Below are positions 2,395 to 19,191 of a stretch of 42,956 nucleotides of DNA, in pieces (positions within the stretch are counted from its first letter, which is position 1; each line of letters begins with the position of its first letter). The translations under genes were made by a program, and so were the position numbers. The notes below the pieces were generated by a model that saw only the letters and a program-made list of their open reading frames with translations, did not search any database and was not told the origin of the DNA. The stretch is from a virus. Lineage: Duplodnaviria > Heunggongvirae > Uroviricota > Caudoviricetes. Where the stretch lies: IMG/VR virus record IMGVR_UViG_2721755643_000001. The stretch is one strand, 5' to 3'.

Positions 2395-2451
2395 AATTGC
2401 ATTAATTATCAATCTGTTAAGATGAGCAGGTCATTATTAGTCAAAATAAAA
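2395..2451. other. Probable attL / integration junction (AT-rich, immediately 3' of int)
   Basis: 57-bp AT-rich spacer between the host ORF stop and the int stop, the position attP occupies in lambda. Core sequence not determinable without the empty site or attR. Confidence 0.35.
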
Positions 2452-3525
2452 TCATTTGTCGATTTCAATTTTGTCCCATTCCCGTCCACGGCTGTCCCTA
2501 TACCGCGCCGCCATTGAATCTGATTTATGTCCGAGAAGACGTTGAGCAAATTTATCGCCAATCTGGTTCCGGTATAGCCTCGCTGACAGGCTACGCAGTT
2601 CATGGAATGTTGGCGGGTCTCCATCAAATGAGAGTCCGGAGGCATTTCTCGCCTTTGTAAAATACTTCGATACTGTTTTCGGGGAAAGCGGTTCGTGATG
2701 CGTTGAGGCGATTACAGTTTCACTGCCGCTGGCCTCCCTGCATTTCTGTAGTGTATCAACCAGTGAGATGTTGAGCGCGTCAATCGTTAGCGTCAGCGGA
2801 ATGGCAATCTTGGCTCCTGTTTTACCCTGCTCAATGTGAAGATGGTTGTCGTTTATGTCTGACCACTTCATTCTGCATAAATCGCCCACTCTCTGCCCTG
2901 TAATGACGGCCAAATCCATTGCCAGCCTCAGCCAGATAGGGAGAGGTTCGGCTGCATGGTAAATCTCGATATACTCATTAGCTGTAAGCCTTGAGCGCCT
3001 TACTTCTGACTTTGCTGTGCGGGTTGCTGTTACCGGATTCGTAGCCACATGCCCCTCGGCTATTGCTTCACGAAAAACGTCAACAAGGGTTGACCTGATT
3101 AATTTTGCGGAAGCCGCTTTACCTTCTGCTACGTAGGTGTTTAGCATTGCTGCCACCTCTTTCGTTGATATGTCATTGAGCGGTTTGTCCGGCAATTTTC
3201 TTCGAATCGCCCTGATTTTGCTGGCGTAGTCGAGTAGAGTTTTCGGTCTGATACCCCTCTCGCTGAGGATTGTTTCATATCGGTCAAGCCACGCATGAAG
3301 AGTGATTGCGTCAGCGCCTTTAATCCTGTCTATCAGTGACTCACGCCTGTTCTCAGATAGCAACTCAATATTGGCCTGAATAGCCTCTGAAACTGCTATC
3401 CTTCTGTCTCTGCCTAATCCGAACTCTTTACCCGTCCTTGGGTCCCTGTAGCAGTAATATCCATTGTTTCTTATATAAAGGTTAGGGGGTAAATCCCGGC
3501 GCTCATGACTTCGCCTTCTTCCCAT
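2452..3525 (-). CDS. int: Tyrosine integrase, lambda Int family
   Basis: 357 aa; N-terminus MGRRRSHERRDLPPNLYIRNNGYYCYRDPRTGKEFGLGRD and C-terminal HELRSLSARLY...LLGH...YRD motifs match lambda Int closely. Confidence 0.95.
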   Translation of the reverse strand: MGRRRSHERRDLPPNLYIRNNGYYCYRDPRTGKEFGLGRDRRIAVSEAIQANIELLSENRRESLIDRIKGADAITLHAWLDRYETILSERGIRPKTLLDYASKIRAIRRKLPDKPLNDISTKEVAAMLNTYVAEGKAASAKLIRSTLVDVFREAIAEGHVATNPVTATRTAKSEVRRSRLTANEYIEIYHAAEPLPIWLRLAMDLAVITGQRVGDLCRMKWSDINDNHLHIEQGKTGAKIAIPLTLTIDALNISLVDTLQKCREASGSETVIASTHHEPLSPKTVSKYFTKARNASGLSFDGDPPTFHELRSLSARLYRNQIGDKFAQRLLGHKSDSMAARYRDSRGREWDKIEIDK

Positions 3526-3721: not shown

Positions 3722-3825
3722 GTCATATCTCTGCAATATGACCGCCAGTAAATATACAGAATACTGGCGGGTGTGGTTGATTTTTAATAATCAGCTATGA
3801 AGTTCTAATCTGGATATAATGAAAT

Positions 3826-4014
3826 TCACGAGGACTGAAGTTTCTCGCAATTAAAATTTATCAGTTTTACTTTCTGCTCTCTGGAAACGCCTGCTTCTTT
3901 TTCCCCTGAGAGCATTTTTTCGCATTCTGATTTCGTTAGTTTTGTCTTTGAGTATCTTGTCCAGCTGGCAGGAGATCCACCTTCCTTTTCAATAGTGGCT
4001 GTAATTTTATACAT
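3826..4014 (-). CDS. Hypothetical small phage protein
   Basis: Track ORF 3826..4038; internal start at MYKITAT has a strong GGAGGTG Shine-Dalgarno 5 nt upstream. Confidence 0.5.
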   Translation of the reverse strand: MYKITATIEKEGGSPASWTRYSKTKLTKSECEKMLSGEKEAGVSREQKVKLINFNCEKLQSS

Positions 4015-5467: not shown

Positions 5468-7382
5468 TGGTCACTCCAAAATTTTCAAGCTTGTTGGCAA
5501 TCATCATTGCGATGTCAGGGATTGCAGGCGCATAGGCTATGCACGCAGGATTCGCACATAAACCGTAAACCGCCGCAATCAACACCTGTTTTTTCCAGTT
5601 GAGTTCATCTTCGCCAGTTTCATTATTGCTATCATTATGCTGATCGCTGCCAGCGTTCTCCGGTAACAAATCATCAGCTTTTTCCGTTTTCTTCGGCTCT
5701 TCTTCCTGTGCTTCATCTGGTTTTTTTTCGTCAAAAGTTTCCTGATAAGTTGCGTCTCCCATCACCGCGCCACAGTCAGGGCAGTTATCCTCGCCAGTCT
5801 GATTGCAGGGTGTTCCCTCCTCCGGTTCGCTGTTCTGGTGCTGTTTATCTTCAGTCTGTCGCACTTCATTTTCCGTTTTTTTGACTTCATTTGAGGAGAT
5901 ATGATGACCGGGAATCCATTTCGGATCATTCGGGTCGCTAATCCCTTCAACAAATTCTCCGCGAGAGGCAGCCAGTAATTTGTCTGCATCGACAGGATTT
6001 TTGGGCGGAATGTTTTTCCGGGCTTCATGGAGTTCTGCCCGCAGTTCCTGATATTTCGCATCAACAGCATTTACCTGTGACTGAGCATCCAGCGGCTGCG
6101 TGTCCTGATGATGTTCAGTTGCATCCGGTTCCACTGTTTCAGCCGTTGCCTGTTCATCTGCCATTGCGCAAGATGGTTGCGGTTTTTCTTCATCATCCTG
6201 TTTTCCTTCTTCTGTTACACGCTGCGGCATCGGGGCAGAGGAGCGACCGCAGGCAATATCCACGATTTCCGGATCAGGGTTGGCATGATCGGTTTCAGTC
6301 AGTACCTTGTTCAGATATTCAGTGACGTGCGCGGGGATGACCTCGATCCCAATTGGTGCTTCTTTTACGGACGCAACCACGATGGCGCGGGAATAATCCA
6401 GCCCGCCAGGCATGGTGATGAATTTGTCGCGGAAAACAGAAAAGGGCGGTTTATTTTCAGCGATAATTTCCTCAATGCGTTTAGCGTGTGCCGGATGAAG
6501 GTTATAGATGTCCAGATCCATTGAACGGGCCAGTACGCCAGTGGCTACGTCGCGCGCCAGTGACGTCAGATCGTGTACGAAACCTTCGCCGCGATCGGTG
6601 AGGTTTCCGCCGCCAGCATTAGCACCGGAAGCCGTGCGAGTGATGTGTGAAACACGATTACCCTTCATCCACTCTTTTGTCAGCAGTCCTCGATCGGTGT
6701 AGTCAGCGTTCAGGTATGCTTCGAAAAAAGCAGTTATCAGTCCCAGGCTTGAATTACCAGGATTAGGGAAAACTTTGTCAGTGTCACGAACCAGTTTGTG
6801 GAGATCGCGAATTTCCAGCGGGTCGAGCAGGCTGGTTTTGTGGGAAACAGCCAGGGCAGTAACAGCCGGTAGTTCTTCAGCCCGAGCAATGTGTAATGCC
6901 TGGAGTCCGTCGCGTGAAACGTGCGTTACCGGTTTTTCGCTGCCGTGTTGAGCAAGCCAGCGAATGGGCAGTTCCTGACCGGAAACTGGCAGGAGCATGT
7001 TCTCCTCAATTTCTGTCATGTCTTCGCCGTTGACGTTGGTATTGTCAGTGCTGGCTGGTTTGTCCTGAACAGAGGGAGAAGATGCGATAAATACCATTGT
7101 GATGCCATCTTCCCCGCCTTTTTCGTAACGGTTGCAGAATTCCGTATCAAACACGCCTTCTGGCGGGAGGTCATCAACAACGGGCAAATTGACGTGAACA
7201 GGTTTTTTAAAGTCATCTTCATCGTAGCCTGCATCGTCAATCGCAACAGCACCACGGGAGATGGCAATGGATAATTTTTTCGCTTCAGCCCAGTAAAAAC
7301 CGCCTTTAATACCGAGGCGTTTTCTTACTTTGTCATTTTTTGCTTCGTAATACAGTGGGTAAACTTGTTTATCGGTGCTCAT
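5442..7382 (-). CDS. Large hypothetical early protein with acidic low-complexity C-terminal third
   Basis: 646-aa ORF; C-terminal region rich in D/E/Q/K/T/P (e.g. [33 protein letters not shown]); no motif I can assign. Confidence 0.8.
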
Positions 7383-8074: not shown

Positions 8075-8623
8075 TTATTTTAAAGAAAGTAATTGTTCCA
8101 CAGTCATATTTTTAATTGCGCCCCGGTTAACAAGAGTCCATCCCTGTTTTTCCAGATAAAACCGGAAAGTCTCCAGGGTACAGACCAGTGCGCCATCAGG
8201 AACGGTTTCGGTGAATTCGACATTGCCGAATTTGTCGAAGTGAACAACCAGAGTGCGACCATCACCCGGAATCATCTTGTCAGCAGGTGGGGTGTTATTC
8301 TGGCGCAGTTCGGCCTCCATGCGGTCGAACTCAGCAATGTAGGCTTCCTTGAATGCGGCGGCTTTTTTGCCAGTGAAGCCCATCACCAGGAAAACGAAGC
8401 CGTTTTTGGTGATTTGGTACATTGGGAGTTTGCGCCCGGTTGAGTCGGTGTATTCGCTCGCCTCAAAATTGAGGGCAGTAAATTTATCTGAGCATTCAAT
8501 ATTTGCGATGGCACGTAACACATTGTCGTGTCGTTTGTGGAAGAACTCTGCAACCGCAACAGACGTAGTGACAGCGCGACCGTTTTCTACGGTTACACAA
8601 GGGTGAGAAAGGGTAGTAGCCAT
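8075..8623 (-). CDS. Phage regulatory protein, Rha family
   Basis: Motifs FHKRHDNVLRAI and MYQITKNGFVFLVMGFTGKKAAAFKEAYIAEFDRME typical of Rha; start set at Met99 of track ORF 8075..8917 because the upstream part of that ORF contains a terminator hairpin. Confidence 0.75.
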   Translation of the reverse strand: MATTLSHPCVTVENGRAVTTSVAVAEFFHKRHDNVLRAIANIECSDKFTALNFEASEYTDSTGRKLPMYQITKNGFVFLVMGFTGKKAAAFKEAYIAEFDRMEAELRQNNTPPADKMIPGDGRTLVVHFDKFGNVEFTETVPDGALVCTLETFRFYLEKQGWTLVNRGAIKNMTVEQLLSLK

Positions 8624-8789
8624 GATGGCAGCCTCCGCGATGAATTTGATTAACTCACCACCGGAGGTAGCAATCTCATGGGTGGTGAGACGTACAGGGT
8701 TGCTACAACCGGTCATCACGGAACCCGGCCAGTCTTGCGACTGCCCCGCACGCCCCACCATAATTTGAATGTGGCTGTGCATTACGCAT

Positions 8790-8817
8790 AAAAAAACCGC
8801 CTGAGCGCGGTTATGCG
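8790..8817 (-). terminator. Rho-independent terminator-like hairpin upstream of the Rha gene
   Basis: Minus strand reads AACCGC-GCTCAG-GCGGTT followed by a T7 run; flanked by a CGCATA/TATGCG outer repeat. Confidence 0.55.
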
Positions 8818-8939
8818 CCGTGAATGACTTCGGGGTAGCAATCCCGGCACCCGTTTTATGAGGTGCAGGTGCACTATAATTCCACCCGTTCTGGTTTTCA
8901 ATAGCTACATTCAACATTTTCTCTTTCCTTTCATCACCG

Positions 8940-9094
8940 AAGTGAATTTTGTGATGCGGTGCCTGGTGCCTCCAGGTGACGTTAACCAGTTAACAATTAC
9001 AGTCGGCTTTCCCACCCAAACCAATAAGGACTAACATGACTTTTAACTGTGCCGCGTGCGCTTAGCCGCATTCACCGCATCACAAAATTCACTT
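8940..9094. repeat. Perfect 22-bp inverted repeat pair flanking about 111 bp
   Basis: AAGTGAATTTTGTGATGCGGTG at 8940-8961 and its exact reverse complement at 9073-9094; the interior has a CCTGG/CCAGG hairpin and GTTAAC palindromes. Confidence 0.8.
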
Positions 9095-9362: not shown

Positions 9363-9518
9363 TCACTCACCTGAGTTTCTTTCCAGCCAGCGACGCGCGC
9401 CAGCTTCGGTTTTAAACGTTTTGCTTTTGGTATAAGTCATGGCGGTGAACGTTCCATCCTGGTTGGGGAACACGCCACATACCAGAGATTCGTTGTTGCC
9501 AAGATCGATAGTATTCAT
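9363..9518 (-). CDS. Hypothetical small early-left protein (51 aa), first gene after the leftward promoter
   Basis: Not in the track; ATG preceded by GAGG; its stop sits inside the Shine-Dalgarno of the next ORF; peptide MNTIDLGNNESLVCGVFPNQDGTFTAMTYTKSKTFKTEAGARRWLERNSGE. Confidence 0.5.
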   Translation of the reverse strand: MNTIDLGNNESLVCGVFPNQDGTFTAMTYTKSKTFKTEAGARRWLERNSGE

Positions 9519-9689
9519 GTTGACCTCATTTCCCCTTAACGCCGGGTGGCGGAACTAAAACCTGCTGCACTGCAAAATTTGAACCCTGCCGTCATGTTCT
9601 TACGCCTCGGGCTGGCTACTTAACCCCTGACCACTGCCTGGTAACTCGAAGTATTGCCCTGCGTTCTGTGGGGCGGGGTGGGTTGATGG

Positions 9690-9750
9690 ATACAATCTAC
9701 AAATTAAAATTTAATTGGTCAATATATTTATTATTAAATTTGTAATTGCG
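9690..9750. promoter_or_regulatory. OL-like operator / leftward early promoter region
   Basis: AT-rich; the 15-mer ATTAAATTTGTAATT (9733-9747) recurs exactly at 10975-10989 in the repressor-cro intergenic region; inverted TACAAAT / ATTTGTA half-sites. Confidence 0.5.
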
Positions 9751-9790
9751 AACGATTGCATTAGTCCCAAAATGGGACTATCATGCAGTT

Positions 9791-10093
9791 ATGAAGATCA
9801 TCTCAGTTAAAACACTCAGGGATTTTTGGGCGGAGAATCCCGATGCAGAACAACCGCTAAGGGCATGGGTGGATGAGGCAGCAAAAGCTGACTGGAAAAG
9901 CCCGGCAGACATTAAGGCACAATACCGAACGGCTAGTATATTGAAAAGCCGGCGTGTGGTATTCAACATAAAAGGTAATCATTACCGTTTAATTGTTGCA
10001 ATTGCGTATCAGCGAGGATGGGTATTTGTTAAATTCATCGGAAGCCACAAGGAATACGATGCCATTGATGCTGATACCATCGAACTGGAGTAA
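9791..10093 (+). CDS. higB: Type II toxin, HigB/RelE-like mRNA interferase
   Basis: About 100 aa, MKIISVKTLRDFW...YRLIVAIAYQRGWVFVKFIGSHKEYD resembles HigB; toxin-first order, 2-nt gap to an HTH antitoxin. Confidence 0.75.
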   Translation: MKIISVKTLRDFWAENPDAEQPLRAWVDEAAKADWKSPADIKAQYRTASILKSRRVVFNIKGNHYRLIVAIAYQRGWVFVKFIGSHKEYDAIDADTIELE

Positions 10094-10095
10094 GC

Positions 10096-10455
10096 ATGAA
10101 CATCAAACCTATTCGTACAGAGCAAGATTATGAAGCCGCGTTGCGTGCTGTTGAGCCTATGTTCGACAATGAACCGGAAATTAACACGCCTGAGGGGGAT
10201 TTCTTTGAGGTGATGTGTTTGCTAATAGAGGAATATGAAAAAAAACATTATCCCATTGAGCCACCATCCCCAATTGAAGCTATAAGATTTCGCATGGAAC
10301 AGCAGGGGCTGACCGTGAAAGATTTGGAACCCGCAATTGGGAAAAAAAATCGGGTTTACGAGGTGTTGAATGGCACCAGAAGCCTTACGTTACCAATGAT
10401 TCGCCGTCTTCATAATCAATTTGGTATCCCCTTGGAAAGCTTGGTGGGATTATAA
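10096..10455 (+). CDS. higA: Type II antitoxin, HigA-like (XRE-type HTH)
   Basis: 119 aa immediately downstream of the toxin; C-terminal HTH-like segment GLTVKDLEPAIGKKNRVYEVLNG. Confidence 0.75.
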   Translation: MNIKPIRTEQDYEAALRAVEPMFDNEPEINTPEGDFFEVMCLLIEEYEKKHYPIEPPSPIEAIRFRMEQQGLTVKDLEPAIGKKNRVYEVLNGTRSLTLPMIRRLHNQFGIPLESLVGL

Positions 10456-10501
10456 AATCTGCTAGTCATTTGCCTGATACTCGTTCCAGAAAAGGAACGC
10501 A

Positions 10502-10894
10502 TCAGGCAGTTTTGTTTTTCTGCCGCAGTAACTCTTCAAGTTTTCGTTTATAGAAATCGCGTTTTTGCTCCATATCTCGAATGATCTGCTCTGCGTCGCT
10601 TTGAGGTAACTCATCTAAAAGCGATATGATTTTTCGTTGCTGTTCTGTAAGTTGCGGTTGGTTGTCATTAGTGGATACAGCCATCTTATCGCCGAGAGCT
10701 TCTTCTTCCATAAAGAACCAATGGACGGGATGTTGTGAGAGCTCTGCTAATTTTTCCAGTTTATCCATTCTTGGCATCACGCCTTTCAACCAACCTTGCA
10801 CGGATTGGGGTTTTACACCAAGACGTCTTCCCAGCTCTGACTGGTTTATATTCAATTCCTGCAACACCTGCTGAAGGCGTTTTACAAAGATCAT
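10502..10894 (-). CDS. Prophage repressor (CI-like, HTH_XRE)
   Basis: HTH QSELGRRLGVKPQSVQGWLKG; divergent from the Cro-like gene; ATG start with AGGGGTGG Shine-Dalgarno chosen over upstream GTG codons in the track ORF. Confidence 0.8.
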   Translation of the reverse strand: MIFVKRLQQVLQELNINQSELGRRLGVKPQSVQGWLKGVMPRMDKLEKLAELSQHPVHWFFMEEEALGDKMAVSTNDNQPQLTEQQRKIISLLDELPQSDAEQIIRDMEQKRDFYKRKLEELLRQKNKTA

Positions 10895-10939
10895 CACCAC
10901 CCCTCGAAAACTAATCTCGCAATTCTACAGAAAAAATTG

Positions 10940-11020
10940 ATAAGTGGCATTACAAATAGAAGTTGAAATTTAAAATTAAATTTGTAATTATCGATACCAT
11001 CGTAAAGTTTGGAGGGAAAC
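10940..11020. promoter_or_regulatory. OR-like operator region with divergent promoters
   Basis: Intergenic between divergent repressor and Cro-like genes; ATTACAAAT (10949-10957) and ATTTGTAAT (10980-10988) are inverted half-sites; 15-mer shared with 9733-9747. Confidence 0.55.
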
Positions 11021-11293
11021 ATGCAAAAAAGTACTCAAATAAAAATCCTGTCGATAATGAGCCAATCAGAATTAGGGCGTCGTCTTGGTAAAACTCCACA
11101 AACCATAAGTGGGTGGTTTAAAAAACGAGTTCCTGCGGAGGAGGTTATTCCTGCATGTGAGGCGCTTGACTGGGGAGTGACTCCGCATGAATTGCGCCCT
11201 GATAAATACCCTAACCCGACCGACGGTTTACCTGTTGGATGTAAGGTTAACAGATCAAATGAACCGGAGTTGATTCATGAAAATCAGGCATGA
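11021..11293 (+). CDS. Cro-like HTH regulator (YdaS-like position)
   Basis: HTH QSELGRRLGKTPQTISGW; GGAGGG Shine-Dalgarno before the ATG at 11021; first rightward gene. Confidence 0.75.
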   Translation: MQKSTQIKILSIMSQSELGRRLGKTPQTISGWFKKRVPAEEVIPACEALDWGVTPHELRPDKYPNPTDGLPVGCKVNRSNEPELIHENQA

Positions 11294-11702
11294 ACACATC
11301 CGCATGGCGATGAATACCTGGGCGCATCCGGACGGTGAGAAAGTACCGGCTGCAGAGATTACCAAAGCGTATTTTGAACTGGGAATGACGTTTCCGGAGC
11401 TGTACGACGATTCACATCCGGAAGCCCTGGCTCGCAATACTCAGAAAATTTTCCGCTGGGTGGAGAAAGACACCCCTGATGCAGTTGAAAAAATTCAGGC
11501 GTTGTTACCAGCGATCGAAAAGGCAATGCCACCTTTGCTGGTGGCCAGAATGCGCAGCCACAGTTCAGCTTATTTTCGGGAGCTGGTGGAGACGCGGGAA
11601 CGACTGGTGAGAGATGCTGATGATTTTGTCGCAGTGGCGATCGCCGGTTTCAACCAGATGAATCGTGGTGGCCCGGCGGGAAATGCCGTGGCTGTACATT
11701 GA
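11277..11702 (+). CDS. cII-like / YdaT-family regulatory protein (tentative)
   Basis: 141-aa ORF overlapping the Cro-like stop; position equals cII in lambda or ydaT in Rac; family is inference. Confidence 0.55.
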   Translation: MKIRHEHIRMAMNTWAHPDGEKVPAAEITKAYFELGMTFPELYDDSHPEALARNTQKIFRWVEKDTPDAVEKIQALLPAIEKAMPPLLVARMRSHSSAYFRELVETRERLVRDADDFVAVAIAGFNQMNRGGPAGNAVAVH

Positions 11703-12446: not shown

Positions 12447-13487
12447 ATGGCTACTTCATGGCTCAGATTATGGCATGACATGCCAAATGATCCCAAGTGG
12501 CGAACAATTTCCAGGGTGTCAGGGCAGCCAATCGCAACGGTGATGGCGGTTTATGTTCACCTTCTGGTGAGTGCGTCACGAAATGTCACGACATGTCACG
12601 ACGTGTCACGACGTGGTCACATTGATGTCACGACAGAAGATTTGGCAAGTGCGCTCGACGTGACAGAAGAGTCAATTGATTCAATTTTGCGGGCAATGCA
12701 GGGGCGGGTACTTGATGGAGATTTAATCACCGGATGGGAAAAACGCCAGGTAGCGAAAGAGGATAACGGTAATGTTTCGCAAACCGCGAAATCCCCGGCA
12801 GAGCGGAAGAGAGCGCAGCGTGAGAGGGAAAAATCACGAAAAAAGGATGAGGGATGTCACGATGAGTCACGCATATGTCACGACATGTCACGACGAGTCA
12901 CGACAGATAAAGATACAGATAAAGAATTAAACCCCACACATAACGCGCGCGTGCGCGAGAGTGCTCCGACCAGCGAGTCGAACGGTACGCCGTTGCAGGT
13001 GGCGGAACCTGAATTTCCGGACGGCCTGAGTGAACCCATCGGGAAATTTCCGATGACCGATGGCTGGCATCCGTCGCCGGATTTTCGACGGCGGGCTGCA
13101 TTGTGGGGAGTGGCTCTGCCGGAGCCGGAATTTACACCTGCTGAACTTGCCGCATTCCGGGATTACTGGATGGCGGAGGGCAAAGTGTTCACGCAGGTTC
13201 AGTGGGAGCAGAAATTCGCCCGTCACGTAAATCACGTCAGGGCACAGGTCAAACCAGTCAGCAAGGGGGGCAGCCATGCAGCAGCACCAGGTGGCACCGC
13301 ATCACGGGCAGTTCAGGAAATTCGGGCAGCACGTGAGCAGTGGGAACGTGAAAACGGATTTATCAGCGACGGAAACGGCCTGGAAGCTGTGGGAACTCAT
13401 GGGGGAGGTTTATTCGAACCGCTGGACCCGGAAGAACGGAGCCGCACCTTCGAAGCTCTGGATTGCACAGATTGGCGCGATGACTGA
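12447..13487 (+). CDS. Replication initiator (O-like) with in-gene iteron origin
   Basis: 346 aa; contains two clusters of TGTCACGAC iterons translated as CHD/SRR repeats; sits before a P-like gene. Confidence 0.8.
12574..12634. repeat. Iteron cluster 1 of the replication origin
   Basis: TGTCACGAC at 12584, 12594, 12604 and 12626 with degenerate copies at 12574 and 12614; roughly 10-bp phasing. Confidence 0.8.
12855..12904. repeat. Iteron cluster 2 of the replication origin
   Basis: TGTCACGAT/AGTCACGCA/TGTCACGAC/TGTCACGAC/AGTCACGAC at about 10-bp spacing, followed by AT-rich AGATAAAGATACAGATAAAGAATTAAA. Confidence 0.8.
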
Positions 13488-16632: not shown

Positions 16633-16917
16633 CCTGGTCTGAAGCATTCACAACGGTAGGAATCGCACTGGCGGTGGTGGTGTATTCGATTTGCCGCTGG
16701 GGATAAAAACGGTTTGCGGGAAAAGGAGAGTTAAGTAGAATTGCAGCGGGTGCTTGAGGCTATCTGTCTCAGGCATGAACACCAAAAGGCAGATAGAGAA
16801 AAGCCCCAGTTAACATTACGCGTCCGGCAAGACGCTTAACATTAATCTGAGGCTCAATCTATGAACGGCAAATCTAGGTTAGCCTCTTACGTGCCGAAAG
16901 GCAAGGAGAAGCAGGCT

Positions 16918-17073
16918 ATGAAGCAGCAAAAGGCGATGTTAGTCGCCCTGATCGTCATCTGTATTACCGTCATTGTGACGGCACTGGTAACGAGGAAAGA
17001 CCTCTGCGAGGTACGAATCCGAACCGGCCAGACGGAGGTCGCTGTCTTCACAGCTTACGAACCTGAGGAGTAA
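16918..17073 (+). CDS. Hok/Gef-family type I toxin
   Basis: 51 aa; MKQQKAMLVALIVICITVIVTALVTRKDLCEVRIRTGQTEVAVFTAYE parallels Hok (TM helix, conserved RK.LCE.R and EVA.F.AYE); AAGGAGA Shine-Dalgarno. Confidence 0.75.
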   Translation: MKQQKAMLVALIVICITVIVTALVTRKDLCEVRIRTGQTEVAVFTAYEPEE

Positions 17074-18883: not shown

Positions 18884-18960
18884 GGCCCTTTAGCTCAGTT
18901 GGTCAGAGCGAGCGACTCATAATCGCCAGGTCGCTGGTTCAAGTCCAGCAAGGGCCACCA
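18884..18960 (+). tRNA. tRNA with CAT anticodon (Ile2-like, ileX/ileZ type)
   Basis: Cloverleaf with 7-bp acceptor GGCCCTT/AAGGGCC, anticodon loop CTCATAA, T-arm GCTGG-TTCAAGT-CCAGC, encoded CCA; close to my recollection of E. coli ileX. Confidence 0.8.
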
Positions 18961-18961
18961 A

Positions 18962-19038
18962 CCACCACTAGCTCATCCGGATAGAGCATCAACCTTCTAA
19001 GTTGACGGTGCGAGGTTCGAGTCCTCGGTGGTGGGCCA
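18962..19038 (+). tRNA. tRNA-Arg (anticodon TCT)
   Basis: Acceptor CCACCAC/GTGGTGG, D-arm GCTC...GAGC, anticodon stem TCAAC/GTTGA with loop CTTCTAA, T-arm CGAGG-TTCGAGT-CCTCG, encoded CCA. Confidence 0.85.
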
Positions 19039-19040
19039 GC

Positions 19041-19116
<76 letters not shown>

Positions 19117-19119
19117 TAT

Positions 19120-19191
<72 letters not shown>

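Follow-up and report, generated by a model that had tools for sequence, protein, structure and literature searches.

Why does the same 15-nucleotide word stand at two places in one prophage, once ahead of a toxin-antitoxin (TA) pair and once ahead of cro? The question is raised by the virus record IMGVR_UViG_2721755643_000001 (IMG/VR), a stretch of 42,956 bp that was analysed at its full length (hereafter, the window) and that is a lambdoid prophage of the Escherichia coli Rac/Qin/CP-933P type. The word, ATTAAATTTGTAATT, is found on the + strand at 9733-9747 (copy 1) and 10975-10989 (copy 2), and the gene order around it, from left to right, is ydfA, the copy 1 region, higB, higA, a hairpin, a repressor gene, the copy 2 region, cro, a cII analogue and an O-like gene with a DnaT domain. 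An original prediction, made from the letters alone, took the two sites for the left and right operators (OL and OR) of a single repressor, and proposed in addition that the left copy might double as the promoter of the TA pair. We think it likely that the two copies are indeed the left and right operator arms of the prophage repressor's immunity switch, as both the anatomy of the locus and the comparison with its relatives suggest; the TA pair, however, appears to bring a promoter of its own.

Two copies of a 15-mer in the immunity region

Both exact sites are found where the original prediction had placed them, and the motif search that it recommended returned no third exact copy in the window. 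Each copy is accompanied by an inverted TACAAAT half-site (9698-9704 on the left, 10951-10957 on the right). These had been described as lying about 30 bp away, which is correct for the right locus, where TACAAA and TTTGTA are 30 bp apart from start to start, but not for the left one, where the distance is 41 bp. The 8-mer ATTTGTAR has four matches in the 42,956 bp, all of them within these two intergenic loci and arranged as two inverted pairs. Long imperfect palindromes are present at 10949-10988 (40 bp, 83%) and at 9702-9747 (72%; alternatively 9698-9747), and the distance between the two loci is 1.24 kb.

Any exact 15-mer repeat in 43 kb is in itself unremarkable: about 1.7 are expected by chance per 43-kb window under uniform composition, and several isolated ones are actually present. 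The non-random part is the placement. Both intergenic regions are rich in A+T (70-73%), and when they were simulated with a first-order Markov model of their local composition, a shared word of at least 15 nt arose between them in 2 of 5000 simulations (P ~4e-4). The right copy of the most frequent E. coli allele starts with T and not with A, leaving a shared exact word of 14 nt; judging from the alleles, the constrained core is AATTTGTAAT and not the entire 15-mer.

Operator-like arms overlap predicted early promoters

The inverted pairs overlap sigma-70-like early promoters at both loci (Table 1). At the right locus the repressor gene and cro are divergent and separated by ~126 bp, and the arms overlap hexamers resembling the early-right promoter (PR) and the promoter of the repressor gene (PRM), which at the level of sequence is the layout of a lambdoid switch. 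The genes themselves, for an HTH repressor, a YdaS-type Cro, a YdaT-type CII and a DnaT/O-like protein, are also the set known from lambdoid immunity regions. Copy 2 spans the PR spacer and -10; within the right arm the half-site is conserved, and positions 10975 and 10978 of the N7 spacer vary between alleles. The left arm is part of the 40-bp palindrome and is invariant in 13 alleles. A third operator-like site lies over PRM: its positions 10925-10942 are conserved in E. coli alleles and across the immunity relatives, and in the relative from Sodalis (L011) its counterpart is a full dyad, CTACAG-N7-TTGTAA.

At the left locus, the arms ATTTGTAG and ATTTGTAA, inverted with respect to each other, stand within 9697-9747 on either side of TTGACC-17-TAGATT, a sequence resembling the early-left promoter (PL); this arrangement is kept in the relatives, including one without higBA. 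The locus has in this way, again as sequence, what a lambdoid switch would have, a second cluster of the same operator arms at an early-left promoter beyond the repressor gene. The promoter-proximal arm holds the inverted half-site ATTTGTAG (- strand, 9697-9704), is nearly invariant over 16 E. coli alleles, and is kept in the relatives from Salmonella (L007) and Sodalis; the distal arm, with copy 1, is a conserved island between the hypervariable positions 9723-9726 and 9748-9755. The PL hexamers are kept in all E. coli alleles and in the Salmonella and Sodalis relatives, and the promoter would drive ydfA and the genes leftward of it. Its position is equivalent to that of dicBp in Qin and of PL933P in CP-933P (PMC10448788, PMC8630535). 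For the promoter-like elements of the region, start sites are predicted near 9687 (-), 9791 (+), 10915 (-) and 10998 (+). Relative to PL, copy 1 lies at about -46 to -60, upstream of the -35 hexamer. As the two identical copies thus occupy different promoter positions, a shared promoter function cannot explain their identity, while shared recognition by a protein can.

Relatives keep the half-sites and vary the spacers

The window was compared with 26 related E. coli loci, which gave 13-16 distinct alleles, and with more distant relatives; relatives were drawn from E. coli complete genomes, IMG/VR and exact-protein look-ups. Among the E. coli alleles, identity is mostly ~98.5% for the repressor gene, ~97% for higBA, and ~91-92% for both intergenic regions (9640-9795 and 10895-11030). 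The substitutions cluster in short hypervariable patches beside the operators, namely the two that border the distal arm of OL, 10943-47, and 10990 onward. Within the proposed operators 15% of the columns are variable, as against 55% in the other intergenic sequence (Fisher p=5e-8).

Repressors that are 71-88% identical are found in E. coli, Salmonella, S. diarizonae and Sodalis; their helix-turn-helix (HTH) is essentially identical (QSELGRRLGVKPQSVQGW), with an unchanged recognition helix. In these relatives the YTRCAA/TTGYAR half-sites are kept in the same register and the intervening spacers differ; the arms of the Salmonella relative have TTGCAA. The design of OR is [YTRCAA-N7-TTGMAA][TTTAWR-N7-YTGYAA], preceded by CTACAR-N6/7-TTGATA/TTGTAA over PRM, and the first of these dyads, that of the OR left arm, recurs in the relatives from Salmonella, S. 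diarizonae (L009) and Sodalis. Conserved half-sites with differing N7 spacers are the pattern expected of dyad operators, and thus suggest a tripartite OR.

A heteroimmune locus of E. coli O157:H7 (L002) provides the converse case. Its repressor is 32% identical and has a different recognition helix, and the slot that is filled here by higBA holds a RelB/RelE-ParE pair; another arm, ACAGTTTTTTATTGTA, is present there in four copies, arranged at OL and OR as in the window, so that the arm is swapped at both loci together with the repressor. The assignment of both copies to one repressor is favoured from two sides: TTGYAR arms stand at corresponding positions in relatives that share the recognition helix, and the heteroimmune locus has an equivalent layout with other arms. 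The Sodalis relative, which has no higBA, keeps the PL-like hexamers, the PL-proximal arm and a distal arm, TTTAAA-N7-TTGCAG, ~190 bp from the repressor gene. Since the OL arms are kept there without higBA, the left copy would belong to the phage switch and not to the TA cassette. The 'dicA/dicC' genes of the Rac-SA53 phage and a further locus (L003) were also considered as relatives, and were rejected as a different immunity type with unrelated operators.

Several observations weigh against the assignment to OL and OR. The comparison of variable columns is partly circular, since the operator limits were set after viewing the alignments, and it draws on a small number of closely related alleles. 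With a degenerate 19-bp dyad, YTRCAR-N7-YTGYAR, as the model, 27 matches are obtained in the window, the three OR sites and 24 others, and both OL sites fail it because of their weak inner halves. Operator boundaries are not fixed by the sequence, and the extents given in Table 1 are tentative. The spacing of the arms differs between OL and OR, and that of OL differs by 1-2 bp between relatives, which leaves the geometry of any cooperative binding unclear. The sequences are AT-rich, and an UP element is another possible role for the A/T tracts that precede the PL -35. Finally, no OL was found within 3 kb of the repressor in L009; both this locus and a second one from S. diarizonae (L010) have the three OR sites and no OL within 3 kb, and they are uninformative on OL.

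The higBA cassette has a promoter-like element of its own

The genes between the left motif and the repressor gene are a HigBA-like pair, as had been predicted: a HigB toxin gene lies upstream of an HTH antitoxin gene, as in type II HigBA systems, with matches to Pfam HigB_toxin and PDB 5IFG. A promoter-like element begins 9 bp downstream of copy 1, and its spacer contains a perfect palindrome, TAGTCCCAaaaTGGGACTA (9762-9780), which is unique in the window and, from its position, is likely the operator of HigA or HigBA. A 79%-identical higBA is found directly after the Q antiterminator gene of another lambdoid prophage, in E. coli JNEC-KY176 (NZ_AP045172.1; positions 2440-3166 of locus L004). 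There, the promoter is TTTACA-17-TAGTAT with AGTCCCAAAACGGGACT, and no 15-mer is present; the Salmonella cassette has TTGATG-17-TACACT with AATCCCAATATGGGACT. The same cassette therefore occupies two different cargo slots, in the immunity region and after Q, and since promoter and palindrome travel with it to a locus without the 15-mer, higBA comes with a promoter and a probable HigA operator of its own.

The ATG of higB (9791) stands 7 nt past the -10-like TATCAT, without a Shine-Dalgarno sequence, and the E. coli and Salmonella alleles share this spacing; from this arrangement, the higB mRNA may be leaderless. At the other end of the cassette, the hairpin between the convergent higA and repressor genes is followed on the + strand by a U-rich tract and overlaps the 3' end of the repressor open reading frame (ORF). 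It probably terminates higBA transcripts. A terminator scan of 9400-11100 found nothing, but the hairpin is strong in folding, and a homologous hairpin follows the repressor gene in the Sodalis relative.

Alternative explanations

Could the left copy instead be the higBA promoter, or an operator of HigA or the HigBA complex, and match the right copy by coincidence? It does lie ~45-60 bp upstream of higB, and HigA is also an HTH_3 protein, but we find this reading scarcely credible: the HTH of HigA differs from those of the repressor and Cro, there is no target for HigA between the repressor gene and cro, where the second copy stands, the diverged cassettes after Q and in Salmonella conserve a GTCCCA-N-TGGGAC palindrome and not the 15-mer, and the arm is present at a locus without higBA. 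The hexamer equivalents at the left copy, AATATA and AATTGC, are not promoter-like. Together with the separate TTGCAT-17-TATCAT and its palindrome, with the persistence of such an element beside the higBA that follows Q, and with the left arm of the Sodalis relative, this counts against the left copy as the TA promoter; the same two hexamers exclude it as a PR-like rightward promoter. An account without any specific operator would invoke AT-rich promoter architecture (UP-element-like tracts, an extended -10), binding of H-NS/IHF, or chance, and it can point to the A+T content of both regions, to the expected and observed isolated repeats, and to the left copy at the UP-element position of PL and the right copy including the PR -10. 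We regard it as very improbable, as the copies are at different promoter positions (PR -10 as against PL -46 to -60), the local simulation rarely reproduces them, the four ATTTGTAR cores are all found as inverted pairs at exactly the two places where operators are expected, variation falls on spacers and flanks that are just as AT-rich as the conserved half-sites, and in the heteroimmune relative another arm sequence has replaced this one at OL and OR alike.

Another explanation is compatible with the OL/OR assignment: the left 15-mer would be a repressor operator that also sets the higBA promoter (PhigBA), by activating or dampening it, so that TA expression would depend on the immunity state. 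The 15-mer is about -44 to -58 from the putative higBA start site; its centre, at ~-51, is at a position usable by activators and some repressors, although not an occluding one. The linker of 9748-9755 is near-constant in length and hypervariable in sequence across alleles, higBA and the repressor are always linked in E. coli and Salmonella, and in CP-933P a TA pair is under repressor control (PMC8630535). Against this stand the complete promoter and palindrome of higBA, which persist without the 15-mer at another locus, and the same arm in Sodalis without higBA, so that its primary role needs no higBA. On balance we consider such coupling unlikely. A more specific form, in which copy 1 would be a shared control element of the back-to-back PL and PhigBA and occupancy by repressor or Cro would set higBA transcription, strikes us as a long shot. 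If it were true, the toxin-antitoxin balance would report the immunity state; HigB could, for example, be freed upon loss or displacement of the repressor, so that losing or replacing the immunity region would be penalised or superinfection aborted, and the possibly leaderless higB mRNA would be a further layer of control.

A model for the switch

From the sequences, positions, conservation and distribution of these elements we infer protein-DNA contacts, promoter activity and regulatory outcome as follows. The 130-aa HTH repressor, and probably also the YdaS-type Cro, would recognise TTGYAR half-sites, which are paired in inverted orientation at each of the two loci. In OR (10925-10989), copy 2 with the right arm around it would lie on the PR -10 and the left arm on the PR -35, abutting the PRM -35, with a third, weaker site on the PRM -10; at OL (9697-9747), the left arm would lie on the PL -10 and the right arm, with copy 1, upstream of the PL -35. 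Occupancy by the repressor would shut PR and PL and probably tune PRM, as in lambda and CP-933P, and cooperation or looping between OL and OR is possible. In alignments, the HTH of Cro (SQSELGRRLGKTPQTISGW) is nearly the same as that of the repressor (NQSELGRRLGVKPQSVQGW), so that competition between the two proteins for common sites is expected. Between OL and the repressor gene lies a cargo slot, filled in this case by the autonomous higBA, which would be transcribed toward the repressor gene from its own promoter with a HigA-type palindrome.

We thus regard the locus as an ordinary lambdoid switch of uncharacterised immunity specificity, with an arrangement of TA cargo that differs in detail from the one studied example. 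The current understanding of how a lambdoid switch works is left unchanged.

Comparison with known systems

The studied example is the cryptic prophage CP-933P of E. coli O157:H7, where PaaR2 (the CI analogue) and YdaS (Cro) bind repeated operators and repress PR, PRM and PL, as established by electrophoretic mobility shift assays, DNase I footprinting and gfp fusions; PL lies beyond the PaaA2-ParE2 toxin-antitoxin pair, and YdaT acts as CII (Jurenas et al. 2021, PMC8630535). YdaT recognises TTGATTN6AATCAA at the ydaS/ydaT junction (Prolic-Kalinsek et al. 2023, PMC9986795). The locus described here shares with CP-933P the order of PL, TA cargo, a short non-cleavable HTH repressor, divergent PRM/PR, a YdaS-type Cro and a YdaT-type CII, with repeated inverted operators in the repressor-cro region and at PL, a YdaT-operator-like TTGATT-N6-AATCAg at the cro/ydaT junction, and a toxin-antitoxin pair in the position of lambda rexAB. 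The operators differ, with a TTGYAR core here and the published half-site GTTTAGTAA there. The cargo differs as well: a PaaR-PaaA-ParE locus has a DNA-binding-deficient antitoxin and a TA pair co-transcribed with the repressor from PRM, whereas the HigA antitoxin has its own HTH, and higBA runs toward the repressor gene on the other strand, with a promoter and palindrome of its own. The repressor gene has a Shine-Dalgarno sequence, GAGGGG, 5 nt ahead of its ATG, and is therefore not obviously leaderless as paaR2 is.

The repressor also resembles DicA of the K-12 prophage Qin, being short (130 aa, as compared to 135 aa), carrying its HTH at the N-terminus and lacking a RecA-cleavage site. The NCBIfam model of DicA (NF007257) aligns with residues 3-129 of the 130 aa at 49.7 bits (E=3e-13), which is below the curated cutoff of 101 bits, so that the protein is homologous and of the same architecture but not a member by threshold. 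Its closest relatives among phages are the non-cleavable repressors of Gifsy-1/2, at ~32% identity. Qin likewise has a leftward promoter, dicBp, ahead of ydfA (DUF1391), and operators have been reported at the dicA-dicC region and at dicBp (PMC3441716, PMC10448788). The tested DicA operator, Oc = TTGTTAGTCATAACTAACAA, has TTGT at its outer ends (PMC3441716); the half-sites here face the other way, ACA-N9-TGT, and in Qin the stretch from dicA to dicBp contains no TA cassette. What inactivates DicA, and the Gifsy repressors too, is an antirepressor and not cleavage (PMC10448788); by homology, this is likely to be the case here as well.

Lambda, too, has its repressor gene between two clusters of operators, one overlapping PL and the other PR/PRM; as in lambda, the OR described here looks tripartite, with one site abutting the PRM -35 like OR2, and in both a cargo slot separates the repressor gene from OL. 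The repressor here, however, has no S24 autocleavage domain, as Pfam matches only HTH_3 and HTH_26, and it is therefore not of the cleavable LexA/lambda CI type; an antirepressor is presumably required for induction, as with Gifsy and Qin. In addition, OL shows only two clear arms, and the cargo would be transcribed convergently, from a promoter of its own and not from PRM. The logic of the ACA...TGT dyad resembles that of the phage 434 operator, ACAA-N6-TTGT, although the dyad here is 1 bp longer and most sites have only one consensus half.

With the K-12 HigB-HigA system (PDB 5IFG and related entries), the cassette has in common a toxin gene that comes first, the HigB_toxin fold, an HTH_3 antitoxin, and a palindrome within the promoter spacer, as expected for autoregulation by the antitoxin. 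The relationship is distant (E ~1e-7 to 1e-9), and the pair differs in being prophage-borne, inside an immunity region, with a start codon so close to the -10-like hexamer that a leaderless mRNA is suggested.

Distribution and linkage

Among 5426 complete E. coli genomes, parts of a query comprising 9400-11300 were found in 4417, and the specific immunity module in 147, many of them O26, O103, O111 or O121 strains. The repressor is present in 147 and higBA in 148, the extra one being the diverged copy behind a Q gene; higBA accompanies the repressor in all 147, and no repressor without higBA was found among these genomes, only the more distant relatives (Sodalis; S. diarizonae) being different. 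Salmonella also has both, with identities of 76% for the repressor (in the alignment; 74% by BLASTP), 79% for HigB and 90% for HigA. The original prediction had called the pair an insert, implying a recent event; its complete linkage in E. coli and its comparable divergence in Salmonella indicate that higBA has instead co-diverged with the repressor. Elsewhere, the cargo between OL and the repressor gene is the RelB/RelE-ParE pair already mentioned (O157), a PLD-family gene (S. diarizonae) or nothing (Sodalis).

A scan for the repressor in one representative genome per species found nothing, and the phage collection searched contained no isolated phage of this immunity type at either the DNA or the protein level, with 40.6% identity as the best match to the repressor. 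In the literature searched, we found no paper on it. The operator map is a concrete and testable one for an immunity type absent from that phage collection and common in E. coli associated with enterohaemorrhagic serogroups (O26, O103, O111, O121). The cassette represents a second architecture for TA cargo in a lambdoid immunity region, autonomous, convergent with the repressor gene and stably co-inherited, and the region would be a convenient system for asking whether such cassettes stabilise immunity regions and whether prophage repressors cross-regulate them.

Table 1. Predicted and annotated elements of the immunity region, in order of position (a point marks elements without an assigned strand).
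Element	Position	Strand	Details and basis
ydfA (DUF1391)	9366-9518	-	
PL-like early-left promoter	9694-9722	-	TTGACC (9722-9717)-17-TAGATT (9699-9694), sigma-70-like; consensus scan
OL promoter-proximal arm, CTACAAATTAAAATTTAAT	9697-9715	.	overlaps PL -10; predicted operator
OL promoter-distal arm, with copy 1 (9733-9747)	9727-9747	.	core half-site TTGTAA 9740-9745; predicted
higBA promoter-like element	9756-9784	+	TTGCAT (9756-61)-17-TATCAT (9779-84), sigma-70-like; sequence
higB, RelE-fold toxin, 100 aa	9791-10093	+	Pfam HigB_toxin E=5e-33; PDB 5IFG/5YCL HigB E=3e-7
higA, HTH_3 antitoxin, 119 aa	10096-10455	+	Pfam HTH_3; PDB HigA 5IFG/5YCL E=2e-9
Strong hairpin between convergent higA and repressor genes	10470-10509	.	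-21.5 kcal/mol; z=-4.2 (+), z=-4.8 (-)
Prophage repressor, 130 aa	10502-10894	-	N-terminal HTH_3, helical C-terminal part; Pfam
PRM-like promoter of the repressor gene	10922-10950	-	ATGCCA (10950-45)-17-TAGAAT (10927-22); consensus scan
Third operator-like 19-mer, CTACAGAAAAAATTGATAA	10925-10943	.	over PRM -10 and spacer; tentative operator
OR left arm, TTACAAATAGAAGTTGAAA	10950-10968	.	inverted half-site abuts PRM -35, right half is PR -35; predicted
PR-like early-right promoter	10963-10991	+	TTGAAA-17-AATTAT, TG 1 base upstream of -10, sigma-70-like; consensus scan
OR right arm, with copy 2 (10975-10989)	10969-10989	.	half-site TTGTAA 10982-87 overlaps PR -10 and TG; predicted
cro analogue, YdaS family, 90 aa	11021-11293	+	Pfam YdaS_toxin and HTH_3
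YdaT-operator-like repeat, TTGATTCATGAAAATCAG	11270-11287	.	cro/ydaT junction; motif search
cII analogue, YdaT family, 141 aa	11277-11702	+	Pfam YdaT_toxin; PHROG 'CII-like activator' E=7e-45

Prophage context and further observations

The repeat TTGATTCATGAAAATCAG has one mismatch to the published YdaT operator TTGATTN6AATCAA (PMC9986795), and beside a CII-type gene such a junction site implies a putative PRE-like control point. A second site with one mismatch is present at 3777-3794, just upstream of a match to RalA (3830-4008, +), the antitoxin small RNA of RalR known from the Rac prophage system, in Rfam.

In the leftward operon, Rfam matches at gathering level were obtained for C4 antisense RNA (8678-8765, -) and isrK (8790-8866, -). 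Both fall in the N-terminal 'Ash' part of a 280-aa Ash+Rha ORF (8075-8917) that matches PHROG anti-repressor families, which suggests a candidate antirepressor control module of the P1 immI / Gifsy-1 isrK type downstream of PL. Between a 90-aa ORF and this Rha/Ash gene there is a perfect 22-nt inverted repeat, AAGTGAATTTTGTGATGCGGTG (8940-8961 and 9073-9094), with arms 111 nt apart; the - strand RNA folds with -65 kcal/mol (z=-4.3).

A 21-nt exact direct repeat, ATGTCACGACATGTCACGACG, at 12583-12603 and 12875-12895 lies in the O-like replication gene (12447-13487) and resembles origin iterons. Further Rfam matches are a sok antisense RNA (16748-16923, +) of a hok/sok-type module and a cluster of four tRNA genes (18884-19190, +). 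Lastly, the 22-nt stretch 5988-6009, ATCGACAGGATTTTTGGGCGGA, contains one 15-mer that is the reverse complement of 11041-11055 in cro and an overlapping 15-mer that matches 9820-9834 in higB, an odd coincidence that is probably due to chance.

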